Source: Acidobacteriota bacterium | GTDB lineage: Bacteria > Acidobacteriota > UBA890 | Length of the DNA: 64,000 nt | Reading direction: 5' to 3' | Assembly: GCA_965214245.1 (NCBI GenBank) | Contig: CBDCBL010000009.1 | Span: 210,214-274,213 of the forward strand | Part shown: one piece after another, positions 3,674 to 63,180 of the stretch | Layout of the letters: each line of letters begins with the position of its first letter | Position numbering within the stretch: position 1 is the first letter of the stretch | Program-made: the position numbers and the translations under genes | The notes under the pieces: generated by a model | The model's database searches: none | The model's input: only the letters and a program-made list of their open reading frames with translations | What the model was told of the DNA's origin: nothing

Positions 3674-4087
3674 CTATTGCAGGTCGGTGCGGAACGTCTC
3701 CATCCTGATCTCGCGAGCCGGTCCCCAAATCGAGCTCTGCGTGCCGACTACCAGCGTCAGACTCTTGCGCGCCGCGTTGTCGTCGACAATTTGCCAGCGA
3801 ATGTATCGATCCGGGTCGCCGTTCCACGGATCAATCGAGTAGTTGGCATTCGATCCGACGATCGAGCCGCCGGCAGCGAGGTCGGCATGCGTGAAAGGCA
3901 AGGCGCGCATGATTTCCATTTGCTCGACGCCGGCTGCGGTCAGTTCTGTCATTTCCTGAGCCACCGCCGACGTCTGCACGGCCATCAGCATCATTGGCGC
4001 CACCGCCAACGAGATCAGGCCGACGAGGAACGTGGCCACCAGCACCTCGACGAGGGTGAAACCCGAAGCGTCTGTCTTTCGGATCAT
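3674..4087 (-). CDS. type IV pilin-like / pseudopilin (prepilin-type N-terminal cleavage-methylation domain)
   Basis: [31 protein letters not shown]: class III leader ending in Gly followed by F and hydrophobic helix with E5; ORF track 3674..4117, start taken at second Met. Confidence 0.6.
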
Positions 4088-4118
4088 GCGGGTGTTCCTT
4101 ACTGTGAACGATCCCAAC

Positions 4119-5933
4119 CTAGCACACGAATGGTGTACACGTTCGGCGTGCCGGGGGGAAGGTTGGCCGGGGGTCGAGGAAGTCGGTGTCGAAGCCCCAG
4201 TTGCGGATCGGCGCCGTGTAGATGGGGTTGCCGTAGCCCCACGCTCCGGTGGCGATCACCGAGTTCCACAGGTCGACGATGCTGCCCCGGTACAGCAGCG
4301 TGTCGCCACTCCAGCGCTCGATGAAGCGCAGCACGTTCTCGACGCCGCCGTTGTAGGCAACGCCGGGCACCGTGTCGGTGTTGCCCAGCATCAGCGCGGC
4401 GTTCACCGTCGTGCTCCAGGCGTTGCGGTTGTTCATCGATAGCTGGCTGTACTCGAGGTCACCGTCGCCCGCGTCCGTAGTGTCACCGTCGCCGTTCACG
4501 TCGCCCCAGCGGTTCGAGAGGATCGTGATGGCGGCGGCAATGACCGCGGCGCCGACCTTGTTGACGTCGTTGTAGTCGCCTTGGACGTAGGTCGGGTTGT
4601 CGCTCACGACCGTCACCGCGGCGTTCAGCTCGCTGCCATTATGCAGCATGACGCCGAAATGGCTCTCCAGCCCGCCGTTGGCCCAGGGTGGCGTGTAAGC
4701 GCCTCCCGCCCACGGCGGCGCGGGTTGTCCCACGCCGGGAAACCGCCAGCGGGATTGAAGCCACCAGCGTAGACGATGCCGTTGGCCGGCCAGCCCGGGC
4801 TGCGACCGAGTTTCGCCATGTCGATCTTCGTCACCAGGATGAATTTCTGCTCGCGCGGGTCCCAGAAATCCTCCTGCACGATGGCACTGGTCGCCGTGAC
4901 CGGATCGATCAGCGATACGAGGTTGCCGTTGTTCTCGTACCCCTTCCCGTTGATGATCCTCAAGTCGGCCTCGTACCACATCTTGCCGTCGATCTGGCCA
5001 GGCGTGTCGCCCACCAGGCCGGGTTCGATGATCATTCGCGGATTCGTCGGATCGTCGATGGTCATGTTCAACGGCTCGATGCCGTGCTCGGAGCTGCGCA
5101 CGTTGCCGTCCCAGCGGTTCAGCGCGTCGTCGTGCCAGTTCGGGCTGGTGGAGAGTCCAGGCCCGACATTCCCTGGAAGTTGCCGTCGGCATCGCGGATC
5201 TCCACGTCGCCGGCGCTCGTCCCGCCGTTGTTCTTGCGGAAGTTGAAGATGTCACCGGCTGCCGTCATCACCGCGTCGACGGTCAGTGTGTTGCCGCCGT
5301 CGATGTAGATGCTCTGGTTGCTGTGCACGCGACCCGCTAGCCACATGTCCGGTCCCGGCAGAAGCTCTAGGTCTTCCTCGTAGAAGATGGCGAACTGGAA
5401 GATCGGGATGATGTCGAAGTTCGACGTCATCGTGACCGTGGAGGTGCCGACTGGCTCGACGATGGTCGCCGCGGTGGCCGTGACTGTGTAGGGCACGGTG
5501 AGGGCAGTCAGGCCCTGATAGAGTAGCCGCTGGTCAAGGGCGCCTGCGTGAGCGGGCCGCTGGCCGCTACGGTGAATGTTGTGAAGGTGCTGCCTGGCAG
5601 TGGCGGCACGGTGATGGCCGCGAGCTCGGCAGCGGTGAGATGGCGGGACTTGCTCCTGCCCAGCTGGAGGAGCTCGTTGAGGCCGTATTCGGCGCCGCCG
5701 TCGGCGGCGAAGAACGCCTGGTTGGAGCCGCAGTAATGGCCGGTGAGCTCTACCTCGGTGCCGGCGATACGCGCCAGAGTTATGCCCGTCAAGGCGACGA
5801 TGAAGAGCGTTAACATGGTGATCAACAGCGTCATCCCGTCTTCGTTGCACCACGACTGGACGCTGTTCAACCTGCGTTTTCTGTTGTTTCCGCTCATGTC
5901 AAGCCTTCCTCGGTTCGTCCGTTGTCTTGCCAC
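4119..5933 (-). pseudogene. large type IV pilus PilX-N-domain protein (~600 aa), reading frame broken three times by single-base homopolymer indels
   Basis: Four consecutive minus-strand ORFs (5508..5933, 5119..5853, 4625..5101, 4119..5255) each contain a protein-like segment. N-terminus is PilX_N-like (GMTLLITMLTLFIVALTGITLA). Junctions (~5521-5527, ~5130-5140, ~4711-4718) are each restored by adding one C/G to a 2-3-nt run: SIRA-LTALTVPYTV, DSPPA-PNWHDDALNRW, AWDNP-APPWAGGAY. Confidence 0.5.
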
Positions 5934-5934
5934 C

Positions 5935-6742
5935 TTATGAGAGCACCATCGCGCGTGGCGTCATGCGCGTGGTGAGTGTCGTCGAACGTGTTTGATTCGT
6001 GTTCAGCTTGTTGTCTTCGGTCTCGATCTCGAGTGTTATTTCGACCGTCCGGATGCGGAGCTGCATCACCAGGGTGTTCGGGTTGAATTGCACCGCCGGC
6101 AACGAGTCATCCCAATAGATGATGTTGGTTCCGCCGGCCACGACGTTGGTGGCGATCGGCGCAACGGCATTGTTGTCTTCCTGGCGCACCAGCGTGAACA
6201 CGCCGCCGTTGTTCTGCAGGAAGTAGCTGATCGTCATAACTCGAGCCACTGCGGTTCCGTTGGCAACCGTGTACGCCTTTGACGCACCGGTGTGACTGAT
6301 CCGGTCGTTGGCTGCATCGATCGCCGTGATCGTGACGAAGTCGATGGAACCGCCGGAGTCGTACACGGCGAGTTGCATCCCCACCATAAAGCCGGTGACG
6401 TCGTCGACGGAGAAAGCGTCGTTGTTATTTGCCATATCGGCGACGAAGGCGGCCATGATGCCGCCCTGGTTCTGCCGGATGTCGATCCCGCCGTCGGCGC
6501 GCGGGATGATCACGGGGGTCGGCGGCAGTAACCACAACAGGCCGACGCCGGCGATCTGGATATCGCGCTGCATCTGGTCCATGGCGATACGCACCGCCTG
6601 CTGCGTGTCGATGAGCTGCTGGGAATCGCGGTGTATGTCGTTGAGCTCGACCGAGCATGGTCATGGCACCACCGACGACCATCAACGAGACCAACCCGGC
6701 GACCATGAGCTCCAGCAAGTTGGTACCGCTCTCCTCGGCCAT
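5935..6742 (-). pseudogene. type IV pilus assembly PilW-like minor pilin, one frameshift near 6647-6656
   Basis: N-terminal ORF (6425..6835) gives MAEESG/TNLLELMVAGLVSLMVVGGAMTML then nonsense; frame -1 continues VELNDIHRDSQQLIDTQQAVRIAMDQMQRDIQIAG... (ORF 5935..6594); removing one G in ctcGGtc joins them. Confidence 0.5.
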
Positions 6743-18028: not shown

Positions 18029-18358
18029 TTAACCGACTCCCTTCCTTACAAACACCCGGTACCGCGCCTCCTCCTTCAGCAGCCCCAAGTATTCGTTACC
18101 TGTACTCATGCACCAGGCCGGGATATCGATTTCTACTCCCGCATCATCGGCAAGCAGCAGCAGCACTCCGCCGGCGGGGATATCGCCAATACGGTCCTGT
18201 GTACGAATCACCGGCTCGGGACAAAACGTTCTGAGCGCGTCGACGGTGATCACGGGCTCGAGCCCAGCCAGCTCGCCGCCGGTAAGTGTGCCGTGAACGT
18301 GCCGGTAGATGTCGGGATTGCGCTGCAGTCGGCGGCCCCCGGCAGGGCGCTGCCTCAA
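18029..18358 (-). CDS. TusA/SirA-family sulfur carrier protein (CPxP motif); true start probably internal
   Basis: LDARGLKCPEP-like motif VDALRTFCPEPV...GGVLLLLADD...DIPAWCMSTGNEY; 4-nt overlap with upstream PP-loop gene. Confidence 0.6.
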   Translation of the reverse strand: MRQRPAGGRRLQRNPDIYRHVHGTLTGGELAGLEPVITVDALRTFCPEPVIRTQDRIGDIPAGGVLLLLADDAGVEIDIPAWCMSTGNEYLGLLKEEARYRVFVRKGVG

Positions 18359-19398
18359 ATGCGCATCTCCTCGAGCGCATCGTCGTCGGTCAGCGGCACG
18401 ACGGTTAGCTGGCCCTCGTCGTCGCCGATCCGCCAGCGGACCGGTACGGTGGGTTCGCTGCGACCGTCGCTGTAGCGAGCGGTGATCTGGCAGGCGGTTT
18501 CGAGATCGCGGGCCGACGGGCTGCCTTCGACGAGCGTCAGCGGCGACGGAAAATCGTCCACCCAGACTTCAGCCCGGCCGTCGACGAACCGATTCAGGTA
18601 GGCGTTTTCTCCCTCATCGCGGCCGACCACCATCTTGACCGCGTCGCTAAGCCGAAAGTGGCGTCCGACTTTCAGCAACATCATGTCGTCTGCCGACACA
18701 TCGGTGCCGTTGTGGGCCAGAAAGTCCCGCAGCTTGCGGGCGTAGTTCTGGTCGGGAAGGAAGCAGCAGCCCCCGGCCGGCTGTGGATAGTCGATGATGC
18801 CGAGCTCCTCGGCGAGCGCCATCTGGCACTTCCGCGAGCGGCCGGATATGTCGTAGAGGCGCTCGCGGTCGACCCAGCCGCGTTCCTCCGGGATGCTCGG
18901 CGGCAACAGTTTGGCGCACAGCGGCCGCAACAGCAGGCGCCCGAGCCCCGATTCCTCGGCGACGTTATCGAGCGGCGTACGGCGCTGGCTCATCGGCCGC
19001 TGGCCGAGAACTTCGCCGGTGAACACGAAATGAAAGCCGCGCTCGTCCATGATTTGCTTGGCCTTCTCGAGCATGAAGATGCGGCAATCGATGCAAGGAT
19101 TCATCCCCGAGCCGTAGCCATACTTCGGGTTGAGAACCACCTTGGGGAGGTATTCGTCCTTGATGTCGATGATCTCGATCGGCACGCTGAGATCGGCGCC
19201 GGCCCGCAACGCCTCGTTGCGGTAGGGCTTGTCGGGATTGCTGCGATTCCCCAGGATCCGGTGACGGTCGGCGAGACAGAAACCGGTGGAAAAGTGCAGG
19301 CCGAGCACCTCGACGCCCTGCTCTTGCATCACCCGTGCGGCGAGGGTCGAATCGAGACCGCCCGACAGCAGCCCCAAAGCGCGGATCTGTTCGCTCAT
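18355..19398 (-). CDS. PP-loop ATP pyrophosphatase, Fe-S-type tRNA thiolase-like (ThiI/TtuA-like)
   Basis: LGLLSGGLDSTLAA PP-loop plus CIDCRIFM (CxxC) and further Cys residues; translationally coupled to TusA. Confidence 0.6.
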   Translation of the reverse strand: MSEQIRALGLLSGGLDSTLAARVMQEQGVEVLGLHFSTGFCLADRHRILGNRSNPDKPYRNEALRAGADLSVPIEIIDIKDEYLPKVVLNPKYGYGSGMNPCIDCRIFMLEKAKQIMDERGFHFVFTGEVLGQRPMSQRRTPLDNVAEESGLGRLLLRPLCAKLLPPSIPEERGWVDRERLYDISGRSRKCQMALAEELGIIDYPQPAGGCCFLPDQNYARKLRDFLAHNGTDVSADDMMLLKVGRHFRLSDAVKMVVGRDEGENAYLNRFVDGRAEVWVDDFPSPLTLVEGSPSARDLETACQITARYSDGRSEPTVPVRWRIGDDEGQLTVVPLTDDDALEEMRI

Positions 19399-19451
19399 CG
19401 GATATCAGTCCGGTTCAAAAAGGGTCACTTGAAGCGTAGCAGACGCCAGCC

Positions 19452-19482
19452 GGCCATGGTGGAAGTGTGATGGGTCTGGTTG
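19452..19482 (+). repeat. copy 1 of a dispersed ~30-nt intergenic motif GGCCRTGGTGRAAGTGYGATGGGTCTGGTTG
   Basis: GGCCATGGTGGAAGTGTGATGGGTCTGGTTG between Rrf2 stop and PP-loop start; 28/31 identical to the copy at 40273. Confidence 0.6.
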
Positions 19483-19488
19483 AGGACG

Positions 19489-19950
19489 CTACCCTTGCAT
19501 CAGCGCCCGGCGCGCCTGGTCGCGCTCCTGCCGAGAGGCATCGCATAGGTCGCCCAGGGTTGTCGAATCGAAGGCGTCTTCGATTTGTCGATGGACCTTC
19601 ATCCACAGCAACCGCGACACGCAGAAGGCTCCCCTGCCGCAGTCATCGAAGTCGGGGTCGGGATCCGCGCAGGCCGCCACGAACACGGGACCTTCGAGCG
19701 CCCGGATGATCTGCCCCACCGAGATGTCCGCCGGGTGGCGGGCGAGCTGGTAGCCGCCCTTGCGTCCCCGGACGCTCTCCACCAGTCCGCTGCGCCGCAT
19801 GACAGCGACGAGCTGCTCCAGATACGCCAGCGACAGATCCTGCTCTTCGGCAACCGTGCGCAGCACAACCGGGCCCTCGCCCCAATGGCAGGCGAGCTGG
19901 AACATGGCACGCACGCCGTAGCGGGCGCGGCTGGAAAGGATCATTGCCAT
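19489..19950 (-). CDS. Rrf2-family transcriptional regulator (IscR/NsrR-like, three Cys)
   Basis: MAMILSSRARYGVRAMFQLA...GGYQLAR wHTH and Cys cluster CADPDPDFDDCGRGAFC. Confidence 0.8.
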   Translation of the reverse strand: MAMILSSRARYGVRAMFQLACHWGEGPVVLRTVAEEQDLSLAYLEQLVAVMRRSGLVESVRGRKGGYQLARHPADISVGQIIRALEGPVFVAACADPDPDFDDCGRGAFCVSRLLWMKVHRQIEDAFDSTTLGDLCDASRQERDQARRALMQG

Positions 19951-38689: not shown

Positions 38690-39370
38690 TTAGCCGACGT
38701 TCTCTCGGTACCACAGGCAAAGGTCGGGCAGCGCGCAGCTATCACATAGGGGCCGCCGCGACTTGCAGGTGTAGCGGCCGTGCCAGATGAACAGGCGTGT
38801 GATGTCGGCCCAATGCCTCTCATCGTAGAGCTCGCGCAGCTCGGCCTCGACCTTGTCGGGCTTGTCCTCGACGGTGAGCCCCAACCGTTGGCTCACGCGG
38901 CGGCAATGAGTGTCAACCGCGATCGCCGGCTTGCCATAGGCCTGAGCCAACACGACGCTCGCCGTCTTGCGCCCGACGCCGGCAAGCGACGTGAGGTCTT
39001 CCATCGTGTCGGGAACTTCGCCGGCGAAGCGCTCGACGACATCCGTACAGCACGACTGTATGTTATTGGCCTTCTGTCGAAAGAACCCGGTGGAGTGAAT
39101 CGCGTCTTCGAGCCCGCCGCGATCGGCGTTGGCGTAGGCGCGAGCGTCCGGGTAGTCGACAAACAGGGTCTTGGTAACCCGGTTGACGCGGTTGTCGGTG
39201 CACTGCGCCGACAAGATGGTCGCCACCAACAGCTCCAGCGGGTTGCTGAAGTTCAGCTCGACACGGGCGTCCGGATACGATTCGTCAATGCGGGCGAGGA
39301 TCTCGTTGGCCTGCTCCACCTGGTTCACGTTCGGCCGGCGCGGACGTTCACTCTTCCTCGCCCTCATCGC
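38690..39370 (-). CDS. nth: endonuclease III (Nth)
   Basis: HhH-GPD, LAGVGRKTASVVL, [4Fe-4S] loop CKSRRPLCDSCALPDLC. Confidence 0.85.
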   Translation of the reverse strand, partial: AMRARKSERPRRPNVNQVEQANEILARIDESYPDARVELNFSNPLELLVATILSAQCTDNRVNRVTKTLFVDYPDARAYANADRGGLEDAIHSTGFFRQKANNIQSCCTDVVERFAGEVPDTMEDLTSLAGVGRKTASVVLAQAYGKPAIAVDTHCRRVSQRLGLTVEDKPDKVEAELRELYDERHWADITRLFIWHGRYTCKSRRPLCDSCALPDLCLWYRENVG

Positions 39371-40169
39371 CCTGTCCATCCTCGGCGCCCGGTTCCTCCC
39401 AGGGGATCTCGTCGCCAACGCGCAGCGCCGTAGTCAGCAATTGGGTGTGCCCCACCATCCGGTGGCCCGGACGGGTACGGCCCGGACGAGCGAGGATCTC
39501 GCGAACCAGAATCTCGATGGTTTTCACCATGGCAAAGCCCTCACCGACAAGGCACGCGGCAAGCTTTTCCACCTGGTTGAAGGTCGGCGTCGCGGAAGCG
39601 AAGCGACCACTGCCGATAAGGCACTCGCGTGCCGCCGTCACCTCGTCCCATGGCTCTGGAATGTCGCACATCACGGCGTTGACTTCCGGTTCCAGGGGCT
39701 CAGCGTTGTTGCGCAGCCGAAATTCGACAAGCGACGGATCGACGCCGGCGCGGGCAACGTTGTCGGCGGCGCGCTGCTTGAACTCGGCGCGGCGGTCGTA
39801 CGTGAACACCTTGCCGCCGGGCGCCACGGCATGCGCCAACGCGATGGTCATCGCCCCCGACCCCGTGCCGAGCTCGACCACCCGATCCCCAGGCGACAAG
39901 CCGAGCTCGGATATCAAGTAGCCAACGTCCTTCGGATACATGATGTTGGTGCGTCGCTGGACCTTCATCATCCGATCGACCCAGGTTGGAAACATGGCGT
40001 GAATGGGCGACCCGGAGCTCGTGCGCAGCAGCGAGCCGTATGGCTGGTCGATCAAGCGGTCATGGTGCACGACGCCCTTGTGCGTCGAAAAGGTGCGCCC
40101 CGGATGCAAATGAATCAGGAATCGGCGCTCGTCCTCCAGAACAAGGAGCACCACGTCACCTTCGGCCAT
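39348..40169 (-). CDS. trmI: tRNA (adenine-N1)-methyltransferase TrmI/GCD14-like
   Basis: MAEGDVVLLVLEDERRF..., SAM motif VVELGTGSGAMTIALA; start at M29 of the ORF-track ORF. Confidence 0.7.
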   Translation of the reverse strand: MAEGDVVLLVLEDERRFLIHLHPGRTFSTHKGVVHHDRLIDQPYGSLLRTSSGSPIHAMFPTWVDRMMKVQRRTNIMYPKDVGYLISELGLSPGDRVVELGTGSGAMTIALAHAVAPGGKVFTYDRRAEFKQRAADNVARAGVDPSLVEFRLRNNAEPLEPEVNAVMCDIPEPWDEVTAARECLIGSGRFASATPTFNQVEKLAACLVGEGFAMVKTIEILVREILARPGRTRPGHRMVGHTQLLTTALRVGDEIPWEEPGAEDGQGDEGEEE

Positions 40170-40272
40170 GCGGCCGTGGCCGGTGGTAGGCATCACGGAC
40201 CTCGAAGTGGAGGTAGGAAGGCGGAATCGCCGCGGGAGGGCTGACTGTACCACGCAGAAAGGACCCCAAGCA

Positions 40273-40303
40273 GGCCGTGGTGAAAGTGCGATGGGTCTGG
40301 TTG
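40273..40303 (+). repeat. copy 2 of the dispersed ~30-nt motif
   Basis: GGCCGTGGTGAAAGTGCGATGGGTCTGGTTG in the divergent trmI/CNNM intergenic region, ~110 nt upstream of the CNNM ATG. Confidence 0.6.
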
Positions 40304-40414
40304 CGACGACAAGAGGCCAGATGCAAGGCGCCGCGACCTGATGCTATTCTCGATTCGTGCATCATGCGCCGCCGTCGCGGCTCATTCCCGCCACCGAATA
40401 CCGAGGTAACTCTC

Positions 40415-41671
40415 ATGCCCGACCCGGTGCCGGCGATCGCCGGCCTGGTGCTCCTGCTCGCGTTGTCTGGTTTCTTCTCCGGCTCCGAGACCGCCCTCAT
40501 CGCGGTCAATCGCTACCGACTCAGCTACCTGGCGCACCGCGGTGACCGGCGCGCCGCGGCCGTACGTTCTCTGGTATCCAATCCGGAGCGCATGCTGTCG
40601 ACAATCCTCGTCGGCAACAACTTCGCGAACATCGCGGCGTCGGCTCTGGCGACGATGATCGCCATTCGCCTGGTCGGCGAGGAAGGCGCGATCTACGCCA
40701 CTGTGGTGATGACCACGCTGATCCTGGTGTTCTCAGAGATCGCTCCGAAGACGCTTGCCGCCCGGTCTCCCGAGAGAGTCTCGTTCTGGGTGGCGCCGCC
40801 CATCGGGCTGCTCGTAAAGCTGCTGCATCCCATCGCCAGCACCGCGGTCGTCGTCGCCAACGCGGCGCTCTGGTTCTTCGGCAGACCATCGCCGGATTCG
40901 CACGTTGTCTCCGAGGAGGAGATCAAGGGCATGATCTTCCTCGGCGAGGAAGAACTGGCGATCGCCCGCGAGAAGCGTCTGATGCTGCACGGCATCTTTC
41001 GCCTCGGCGACCTGACGATCGAGGACGTCATGATTCCGCGCACCAAGGTCGTGGCGGTCGATATCGACGCGTCGCCACGTGAGATCATCGACGTGATCCG
41101 GCGCTCCGGCTACACACGCTTCCCCGTGTGCCGGGGCACCCTGGACGACGTCGTCGGCGTGATGAACTCGAAGGACATGTTCAAGTACTCGGAACGGCTC
41201 GAAGATCTGCAGCTCGGACAACTCACGAGACAGCCGTTGTTCATTCCGGAGTCGGCCACGTTACAGTCCGCGTTGCAGGCGTTTCGCGAGCAGCGACAGC
41301 ATCTCGCGATCGTGATCGATGAGTACGGCGGCGTAGAAGGCATCGTGTCGCTCGAGGACCTTCTCGAGGAAATCGTCGGCGAGATCGACGATGAGTTCGA
41401 CTTGCCGCAAATGCCGCAGGTCATGGAGCTCGACGGCGGCGCCCTGCGAGCCGTCGGCAGCTGCCCCTTGGCAGTCCTGAACCAGCGCTACGGGCTCGAG
41501 CTCGAAGCGGCGGAGAGCCATACCCTGGCCGGCCTGATCCTCGAGATCAGCGGGCATGTTCCGGTCACCGGCGAGCGGATTGCGTACAAGAACCTCGAGT
41601 TGATCGTCGAGCGCGCCGTGCCCAACCGCATCGACCAAGTACGCATCGAGCAGGCCGTCGCAAAACCCTGA
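40415..41671 (+). CDS. CNNM/HlyC-CorC family transporter (DUF21-CBS pair-CorC_HlyC; TlyC-like)
   Basis: DUF21 TM domain starting MPDPVPAIAGLVLLLALSGFFSGSETAL, two CBS domains, C-terminal CorC/HlyC domain. Confidence 0.8.
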   Translation: MPDPVPAIAGLVLLLALSGFFSGSETALIAVNRYRLSYLAHRGDRRAAAVRSLVSNPERMLSTILVGNNFANIAASALATMIAIRLVGEEGAIYATVVMTTLILVFSEIAPKTLAARSPERVSFWVAPPIGLLVKLLHPIASTAVVVANAALWFFGRPSPDSHVVSEEEIKGMIFLGEEELAIAREKRLMLHGIFRLGDLTIEDVMIPRTKVVAVDIDASPREIIDVIRRSGYTRFPVCRGTLDDVVGVMNSKDMFKYSERLEDLQLGQLTRQPLFIPESATLQSALQAFREQRQHLAIVIDEYGGVEGIVSLEDLLEEIVGEIDDEFDLPQMPQVMELDGGALRAVGSCPLAVLNQRYGLELEAAESHTLAGLILEISGHVPVTGERIAYKNLELIVERAVPNRIDQVRIEQAVAKP

Positions 41672-62349: not shown

Positions 62350-63138
62350 CTAGCGACCGTCGAACTCGGGCCTGCGCTTGTCGAGGAACGCCCGGAGGCC
62401 CTCACGGAAATCGTCGCTCGCGAAGCATTCTTCCTGGGTCTCCGACTCGCGGGCGATGGCGGACTCGAGGGAGTCCTCGGCGCCGAGCCGGACGAGACGT
62501 TTGGCATGCGCGACGGCGTAGGAGGCGGCACCGAGTCGCGCAGTCTTTTCCTGTACGGCGCCGATGAAGTCGTCTGCGTCGACAATCTCGGTGATCAGTC
62601 CGGTGCGCAACGCTTCCTCTGCGTCGACGAGCTGACCGGTGAGCACCATCTCCATGGCCCGCCCGGCGCCGATCAAGCGGGGCAGCCAGAAGGTCGCACC
62701 TCAGTCGGGCACCAGGCCGAGCTTGATCCACGGGGCGGCGAAACGCACCCCCGGCGCCACAAAGCGAAGGTCGCAGGATAGTGCCAATGAGAGACCCGCA
62801 CCGGACGCCACACCGTTGACTGCCGCCACGGTCAGCCCGGGAAACGCTTGCAGCGCCAGCATCACCTCGGCACCGGCGTGCAGCAGCTTACGAAAACCGG
62901 CGTCATCACTCTCGCTGCGCAACGTGACCATGTTGTCGATGTCGCCGCCGGCACAAAAGGCCTTGCCTTCGCCGGTAACCACCACGGCGCGCACGCTGTC
63001 GTCTCCGGCCGCCGCAACGACATGCTGCAGGAGCTGCTCGCGCATGGTACCGGCCAATGCGTTGTACTTGTCGGGACGGTTGAGCGTGATCCACGCCACG
63101 GTGTCGCGAACGTCGTAGTCGACTCTGGGCTCACCCAT
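62350..63138 (-). pseudogene. enoyl-CoA hydratase/isomerase (crotonase) with an in-frame TGA (62701-62703) at a conserved position
   Basis: ORFs 62701..63138 and 62350..62676 are in the same frame: ...AAPWIKLGLVPD*GATFWLPRLIGAGRAMEMVLTG aligns with the crotonase consensus KLGLIPGxGGTQRLPRLVG...AMEMILTG. Confidence 0.7.
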
Positions 63139-63142
63139 AGCA

Positions 63143-63170
63143 GGCCGTGGTAAAAATGTGATGGGTTTGG
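63143..63170 (+). repeat. copy 3 of the dispersed ~30-nt motif
   Basis: GGCCGTGGTAAAAATGTGATGGGTTTGG between thiolase stop and crotonase start (its reverse complement abuts the crotonase ATG). Confidence 0.55.
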
Positions 63171-63180
63171 CGCGCCGGCA

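Follow-up and report, generated by a model that had tools for sequence, protein, structure and literature searches.

Does a block of about 30 nt that recurs in three unrelated intergenic regions of one bacterial genome represent a signal that is read by the cell, or is it the trace of something that has moved? For the window analysed here, a 64-kb stretch of Acidobacteriota DNA taken as a whole (G+C content 61-67%), the original prediction had left four readings side by side: a transcription-factor site, a small-RNA or terminator piece, a uORF-type attenuator and a REP-like genome-wide repeat. The evidence set out below indicates that the block is very probably the 31-nt terminal inverted repeat (TIR; TA-GCAGGCCGTGGTGAAAGTGTGATGGGTCTGG) of a hairpin-forming, non-autonomous DNA transposon (MITE) of 270-277 bp. 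The three-copy motif is an ordinary relic of selfish DNA and not a regulatory signal.

Three copies in the window and their neighbours

Re-reading the sequences confirmed three copies of the motif, at 19452-19482, 40273-40303 and 63143-63170, all on the plus strand. Searching with the 28-mer consensus and up to three mismatches returned exactly these three sites in the 64 kb, and dinucleotide-preserving shuffles contained no motif site in 100 trials. When the copies are aligned together with 80-nt flanks, a sharply bounded conserved block of ~33 nt stands out and nothing else is common to them. All three are intergenic and their neighbours, as originally named, are supported by Pfam: an Rrf2 regulator and a PP-loop/NFACT-R protein for copy 1, TrmI and CNNM/CorC for copy 2, and a thiolase and a crotonase for copy 3 (Table 1). 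An exact look-up of the PP-loop protein next to copy 1 returned no record, and a TrmI 99% identical to that of the window (P0001; gene at 39348-40193, minus strand) is present on a 1.5-kb ENA contig, which indicates that public assemblies include the organism of the window or a very close strain.

Several finer points of the original prediction can now be read in terms of the repeat. The sequence AGCAGGCC is indeed common to copies 2 and 3 and belongs to the repeat; copy 1 possesses the same TAGCAG terminus (19437-19442), moved 10 nt outward by a small insertion. Conservation does end with the block, as originally stated, when the window copies are compared with one another, but copy 2 follows the family consensus for ~45 nt further, to ~40340-40347 (nhmmer). 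Similarly, the letters of the proposed mini-ORF are present but are merely TIR sequence, and nothing else backs a uORF. Copy 3 does abut the crotonase gene, its flanking TA overlapping the ATG (63136-63138), such that T63138 pairs with the A of the start codon.

No tRNA or tmRNA was detected in a scan of the window, nor any transposase in a Pfam scan of ten window ORFs of odd composition. At 3674-6594 (minus strand), small ORFs in which G+C is reduced at the first codon position form a cluster. A prepilin-type N-terminal methylation motif is encoded at 3674-4117 and a PilX_N domain at 5508-5933; the cluster is probably a minor-pilin or pseudopilin operon.

Table 1. Repeat remnants, their parts and the adjoining genes in the window
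Feature	Position	Strand	Basis or detail
Copy 1, one-ended MITE remnant	19437..19486	+	nhmmer, HMM positions 2-36
Copy 1, flanking TA	19437-38	+	
Copy 1, terminus GCAG	19439-42	+	
Copy 1, 10-nt insertion	19443-52	+	
Copy 1, remaining TIR	19453-19479/82	+	
Copy 2, one-ended MITE remnant	40268..40340	+	nhmmer, HMM positions 2-84 (40269-40347), E=6e-15
Copy 2, mutated flank AA	40268-69	+	consensus TA
Copy 2, 31-nt TIR	40270-40300	+	1 mismatch
Copy 3, one-ended MITE remnant	63138..63177	+	nhmmer, HMM positions 1-46
Copy 3, flanking TA	63138-39	+	
Copy 3, TIR	63140-63170	+	3 mismatches
PP-loop/NFACT-R gene	18355-19398	-	Pfam; one side of copy 1
Rrf2 regulator gene	19489-19950	-	Pfam; other side of copy 1
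trmI	ends 40193 or 40253	-	Pfam; divergent spacer holds copy 2
CNNM/CorC gene	from 40415	+	Pfam; divergent spacer holds copy 2
Crotonase gene	start 63138	-	Pfam; one side of copy 3
Thiolase gene	stop 63181-83	-	Pfam; other side of copy 3

Anatomy and distribution of the full element

A collection with one genome per species (GTDB representatives) was scanned with the pattern CCNTGGTNNAANTGNGATGGGTNTGG, which fits all three copies and for which ~1 chance hit is expected across the whole collection. Among the matches listed, 13 MAGs contain the motif, in a total of at least 98 8-kb bins; 11 of these MAGs bear the label Acidobacteriota or Acidobacteria and the other two 'uncultured bacterium'. 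CBDFKO accounts for at least 20 bins, OZ244217.1 for at least 14 and JACZXM for at least 28. These loci are unrelated, and a multitude of copies in random contexts is what the original prediction had said would speak against its own proposal. The one of its four options that survives in part is the last: the motif is a dispersed genome-wide repeat found in many unrelated contexts, but it is a MITE terminus and not REP-like.

Several bins contain two inverted motif matches exactly 239 bp apart, and the intact element has the form cTA-GCAGGCCGTGGTGAAAGTGTGATGGGTCTGG...~210 bp...CCAGACCCATCACACTTTCACCACGGCCTGC-TAg. Inverted TIR pairs with cTA/TAg flanks, with up to five mismatches allowed, number 34 among the matches listed and span 163-277 bp; most are 270-277 bp long and the shorter forms (163-237 bp) are internally deleted. 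In 141 distinct termini C stands at flank position -3 in 80%, T at -2 in 85% and A at -1 in 95% of cases, and further out the flank is uninformative. The TIR positions 1-31 are conserved at 95-100%, except for three known polymorphic sites, and conservation falls steeply past position 31; these figures are partly inflated because the scan demanded an exact match at 20 positions, but positions left free (N) in the pattern are equally conserved, as are positions 1-5, which lie outside it. A full copy is predicted to fold into a 33-bp outer stem carrying two internal hairpin arms (-198 kcal/mol, z = -17.7).

Within a genome, copies from loci unrelated to one another share 96-97% and up to 99.6% identity, whereas two genomes compared with each other share 79% identity overall, with 93% in the TIR and 74% in the interior. 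Such a pattern would be expected of lineage-specific bursts of a mobile element with ends constrained by transposase recognition, and the family has apparently been active recently. It displays the features that define a MITE, namely TIRs around a short non-coding body, a duplicated flank, many near-identical copies and empty sites. A literature search for Acidobacteria MITEs or for this sequence found no description, and the full MITE has no match in a plasmid collection; the family thus appears to be undescribed so far, in a poorly studied phylum.

In short-read MAGs many matches lie no more than ~130 nt from contig ends (L009, L018, L020, L045, L069, L071, L084, L085, L093 and other fetched loci, which are designated by L numbers throughout). 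Because so many matches sit there, the contig breaks are ascribed to the repeat, which is a frequent cause of them in these assemblies.

Remnants, empty sites and possible functions

A profile HMM of the full MITE (277 positions) matches the window only at the three sites (nhmmer). All three TIR matches are on the plus strand, the 64 kb contain no inverted partner TIR, and no copy possesses both TIRs, so that the window holds no intact MITE. In copy 1 a few inner bases persist to ~19486, and the right half has been lost together with the right TIR and right TA. On the outer side this copy really ends at its flanking TA, 14-15 nt outside the start originally given; the outer end points towards the start of the PP-loop gene (19398), and 3 nt separate the inner end from the stop codon of Rrf2 (19489-91). 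Copy 2 keeps ~40 nt of the left internal arm (GGTTGCGACGACAAGAGGCCAGATGCAAGGCGCCGCGAC), and copy 3, which retains few inner bases (CGCGCC), occupies almost the whole of the 42-nt thiolase-crotonase spacer. In the family at large, one-ended and internally deleted copies are frequent, with HMM end points that form a continuum from 34 to ~250. As one-ended forms are also found in bins from megabase-scale contigs and long-read assemblies (OZ244217.1, CBDFKO), they are not assembly artefacts. Some apparent single copies (L026, L083, L035, L032 and L027) retain the last 8-12 bases of the second end immediately after the first TIR, and must therefore have arisen by internal deletion. The three window copies are immobile, one-ended relics.

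Comparison with orthologous spacers supports insertion at two of the sites in particular. On L124, a metagenome contig, the PP-loop protein has 97% identity with that of the window, and the adjacent spacer reads, in plus orientation, ...GAAGC-TA-GCGCTCCC..., with an intact CTAG and ~48 bases fewer than the window. At this empty site the window carries copy 1, as TA-GCAG-(10-nt insertion)-GCCATGG...GGTTGAGGA. The empty CTAG of L124 itself forms the stop codon of Rrf2 (...QRER, then stop). In the window, small indels at 19487-19500 give the Rrf2 gene a TAG two codons earlier (...QG, then stop), beside copy 1; insertion of the element and later deletion appear to have remodelled the Rrf2 C-terminus. 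The copy 2 block is absent from the orthologous CNNM/trmI spacers of L100, L101 and L102 (TrmI 74-77% identical). L099 (84% identical) has the same inner junction as copy 2 (TAGCATCrGG followed by GTCGCGGC) and the outer flank (TTGGG...), and ~54 nt including the TIR core are deleted from it at the orthologous site. The shared junction implies that the truncated element is older than the split of these two lineages, and the loss of the core that the TIR was dispensable in one of them. L099-L102 have in common the order trmI, thiS-like gene, (TtuA-like PP-loop ATPase), HhH-GPD glycosylase and lexA, with CNNM divergent upstream.

For copy 3 the comparison, made with relatives that are 62-82% identical, is weaker evidence than for copies 1 and 2. 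In these relatives (L184 and L185) no spacer exists, and the genes for thiolase and crotonase have 4 nt in common (GTGA/ATGA); in the window, copy 3 now parts two genes that overlap in relatives. The crotonase gene of the window (62350-63138, minus strand) is frameshifted, with 62701-63138 corresponding to positions 4-133 of ECH_1 and 62350-62676 to positions 144-250. Its orthologs are also split, at other points, in L183 (46 + 209 aa) and L184 (69 + 193 aa), which points to independent gene decay in this clade or to sequencing errors.

The repeat also misleads ORF finders, which turn it into false N-terminal extensions; one strand yields VMGLV... and the other PDPSHFHHGLL. Extensions of this kind were seen in L007 (3136), L012 (2193-2954), L037 (610-2073) and, in the window, in the plus-strand ORF 40277-41671; the latter begins within copy 2, and the CNNM orthologs (421-424 aa) favour a start at 40415.

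No function of their own has been demonstrated for the single copies, and their visible effects are structural only. That they were co-opted as cis-regulatory sites upstream of three minus-strand genes, as an outward promoter or as an operator for a host or domesticated transposase-derived protein, is improbable. It is true that in the window each outer end is directed at the start of the following minus-strand gene, that the 31-nt core has changed little (1-3 mismatches), and that MITE ends supply promoters or binding motifs in other bacteria, for example in the Correia elements of Neisseria (PMC2229807). Across the family, however, the outer ends of one-ended copies (n=54) are turned towards a gene start in 20 cases and towards a gene end in 19, no differently from paired copies (25 against 23), by counts that rest on a crude GC3-based ORF caller; this balance also tells against a promoter and against the transcription-factor site of the original prediction. 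In addition, the three sites possess no sigma-70-like promoter or intrinsic terminator, their distances to the start codons are disparate (1, ~38-50 and ~76 nt), the three downstream genes are functionally unrelated, and L099 has dispensed with the TIR core at the site orthologous to copy 2. TIRs that the scan pattern does not match, and which are free of its ascertainment, carry a mean of 4.5 mismatches in one-ended copies versus 2.75 in the partner TIRs of intact pairs, as is expected for decaying relics. Promoter readings involving sigma-54, sigma-B/F or ECF factors were also considered by eye and rejected, as the spacings misfit and the putative elements are not common to the three copies.

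Next to no credence can be given to a structured RNA, or to an attenuator acting through the mini-ORF GTG GTG AAA GTG TGA. Its letters are in the TIR consensus, but its strand is opposite to the downstream genes in two of the three window cases, and the orientation of the repeat relative to genes is random family-wide. There is no stable fold either, as the three copies folded with their flanks, on both strands, do no better than shuffles (z = +0.7 to +1.4). Rfam gave 0 window matches at gathering thresholds. For the full MITE it returned nothing but long plant miRNA hairpin models, at 52 bits and thus far below the gathering score of 137, a resemblance due solely to the shape of the hairpin; with neither a promoter or terminator consensus nor an Rfam family, the small-RNA or terminator option is without support as well. 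It is also highly improbable that the family is a REP/BIME-type repeat handled by a RAYT (IS200/IS605-like) transposase. In common with REPs, the repeat is short, dispersed, high-copy and mostly extragenic, and occurs singly or in inverted pairs. A REP is, however, a 20-40-nt imperfect palindrome bearing the GTAG or CGTC tag that defines the REP super-families (PMC3733652), whereas the Acidobacteriota unit is neither palindromic, as the folding scores attest, nor tagged, its flank being CTAG. Its pairs, moreover, enclose a conserved ~210-bp body between duplicated TA flanks, which is the anatomy of a cut-and-paste MITE.

The MITE reading leaves some room for a wider influence on neighbouring genes. 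Because the element targets CTAG it lands on TAG stop codons, and at 23 of 124 termini the TAG stop of the adjoining predicted gene is composed of the flanking TA and the first G of the element. It is conceivable, although unlikely, that the family systematically places large 3' hairpins or single protein-binding ends beside genes and that some single TIRs persist as regulator-binding sites; if so, retained single TIRs such as those of the window would be sites for a transposase-derived or host regulator.

The mobilising transposase and relationship to known elements

No plus/minus TIR pair 0.8-3 kb apart, as an autonomous element would possess, was found in any fetched locus, and ORFs inside long one-ended copies, considered as its possible coding part, proved to be ordinary genes. 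A motif scan of six-frame translations of the fetched loci identified an IS5-type ADKGYD transposase in four bins of the MAG CBDFKO. The co-resident IS is 1.3 kb long and encodes a transposase of 358 aa with the Pfam domains DUF772 and DDE_Tnp_1; the NCBIfam model NF033581 ('IS5 family transposase', cut-off 140) recognises this protein at 277 bits. Its ends, cTA-GCAGGCTGCTGAAAAAC...GTTTTTCAGCAGCCTGC-TAg, comprise a 17-nt TIR (cTA-GCAGGCTGC(T/G)GAAAAAC when the variant position is written out) and a flank identical to that of the MITE. When the two elements are anchored at the terminus, they agree at 11-12 of the 17 outermost bases; among random genomic 17-mers, 12 or more identities occur at a frequency of 4e-4, and the chance frequency for 11-12/17 is 4e-4 to 1.6e-3. 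The IS has nothing that corresponds to positions 18-31 of the MITE TIR. As only the outer ~17 nt are shared, the IS is best regarded, from this comparison of ends, as a relative of the autonomous partner of the MITE and not the partner itself.

Copies of this IS, with transposases of 358-359 aa, lie in L028 (6062-7375), L031 (2593-3905), L048 (reverse strand) and L186 (1413-2714). It is massively expanded in CBDFKO, where two contigs hold dozens of distinct transposase variants, and OZ244217.1 contains a single copy, whose ends are alike. The additional IS copies are all at CTAG, with metagenome flanks that look chimeric, and homologs of the transposase in OZ244217.1 and in metagenomes are likewise bordered by the 17-nt TIR and not by that of the MITE; one look-up (P0311) returned nothing. 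In L048 and L092 the IS directly adjoins a MITE terminus, with the CTAG common to both.

The flank profile of the MITE is Y-T-A-R, with Y (C/T) in 91% and R (G/A) in 99% of cases, and so fits YTAR, the target of IS5. The TA is present on both sides, and since CTAG is palindromic and the element ends in G...C, the duplication may be of 2-4 bp. The informative pairs conflict: CTAA/CTAA in L004 and L063 favours 3-4 bp, whereas L039 and L042 (ATAG or GTAG against CTAG) and L057 favour 2-3 bp. On balance, an IS5-like transposase is the likelier agent of mobilisation, because an IS5-family IS with matching ends is present, the flanks fit YTAR and no IS630 signature was detected in the fetched loci. 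It is possible, with a distinctly lower probability, that the same MITE was derived from or mobilised by a transposase of the IS630/Tc1-mariner family, with a 2-bp TA duplication and a preference for CTAG. TA flanks on both sides with this preference are the published behaviour of IS630/ISY100 (PMC2170065 and, in its reference list, the title of Tenzen & Ohtsubo 1991), elements that insert at TA and duplicate it, IS630 with a preference for TA within CTAG. Within the 34 pairs, moreover, non-consensus cases number 10 at the outer flank versus 2 at the terminal G...C, and aTA...TAg (L039), gTA...TAg (L042) and tTA...TAc (L057) fit a 2-bp duplication. Against this, the CTAA/CTAA pairs do not, Y-T-A-R agrees equally well with the IS5 target, and the only IS found with a matching flank and terminal bases belongs to the IS5 family. 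A six-frame regex search for a YSPxLNPIE-like signature found none in ~1 Mb of fetched loci, of which ~0.65 Mb come from repeat-carrying genomes and represent a partial sample of them.

On the best account of these observations, a MITE has spread in a lineage of Acidobacteriota, its TIR being the site that a DDE transposase acting in trans, most likely of the IS5 family and less likely of the IS630 family, would bind and cut. Insertion takes place at CTAG/TA sites; at 65% G+C such sites are scarce, and they often coincide with a TAG stop codon, which the terminal G of the element rebuilds. Each window copy started as an insertion between genes and was then stripped, through internal deletion, of the second TIR and of most of the body, perhaps through instability of the palindrome or through abortive excision and repair.

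Recognition of the family explains a recurrent conserved 'motif' in Acidobacteriota MAGs that might otherwise pass for a regulatory element, uORF or small RNA. In practice, contig breaks caused by the repeat and false N-terminal gene extensions become recognisable, and the presence or absence of copies provides insertion markers for closely related strains. Together with its likely IS5-family relative and its habit of targeting CTAG and TAG stop codons, the element is a modest addition to the catalogues of mobile elements.

Among known systems, IS630/Tc1-mariner elements and their MITEs (ISY100 and IS630, RUP, plant Stowaway) insert at TA, which they duplicate, and IS630 prefers TA within CTAG (PMC2170065 and its reference list), in which they resemble the family; they differ in that their transposase was not detected in the fetched host-genome DNA and that the ends are similar only to those of an IS5-family IS. 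IS5-family ISs (DUF772 + DDE_Tnp_1, YTAR) share the cTA-G...C-TAg flanks and the 11-12 of 17 terminal bases, whereas the TIR of the co-resident copy stops at 17 nt, leaving positions 18-31 of the MITE unmatched, and no IS in the fetched loci carries the full MITE TIR. The closest likeness is to the bacterial MITEs, for which a review (PMC2229807) names TIRs, a duplicated target with 5'-TA-3' at the termini, folding into a stable stem-loop, numerous intergenic copies and empty sites; the classical examples, including Correia/NEMIS of Neisseria and RUP of Streptococcus pneumoniae, are shorter than 200 bp and A+T-rich. The anatomy of the Acidobacteriota element, which is likewise small and non-coding, with TIRs, duplicated TA termini, long stable stem-loops and presence/absence polymorphism, agrees with every reviewed feature except an identified autonomous partner. 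In the window it is represented by one-ended remnants only. In contrast to those families it is larger (270-277 versus <200 bp) and G+C-rich rather than A+T-rich, and possesses a longer TIR (31 nt) and a body composed of two hairpin arms.
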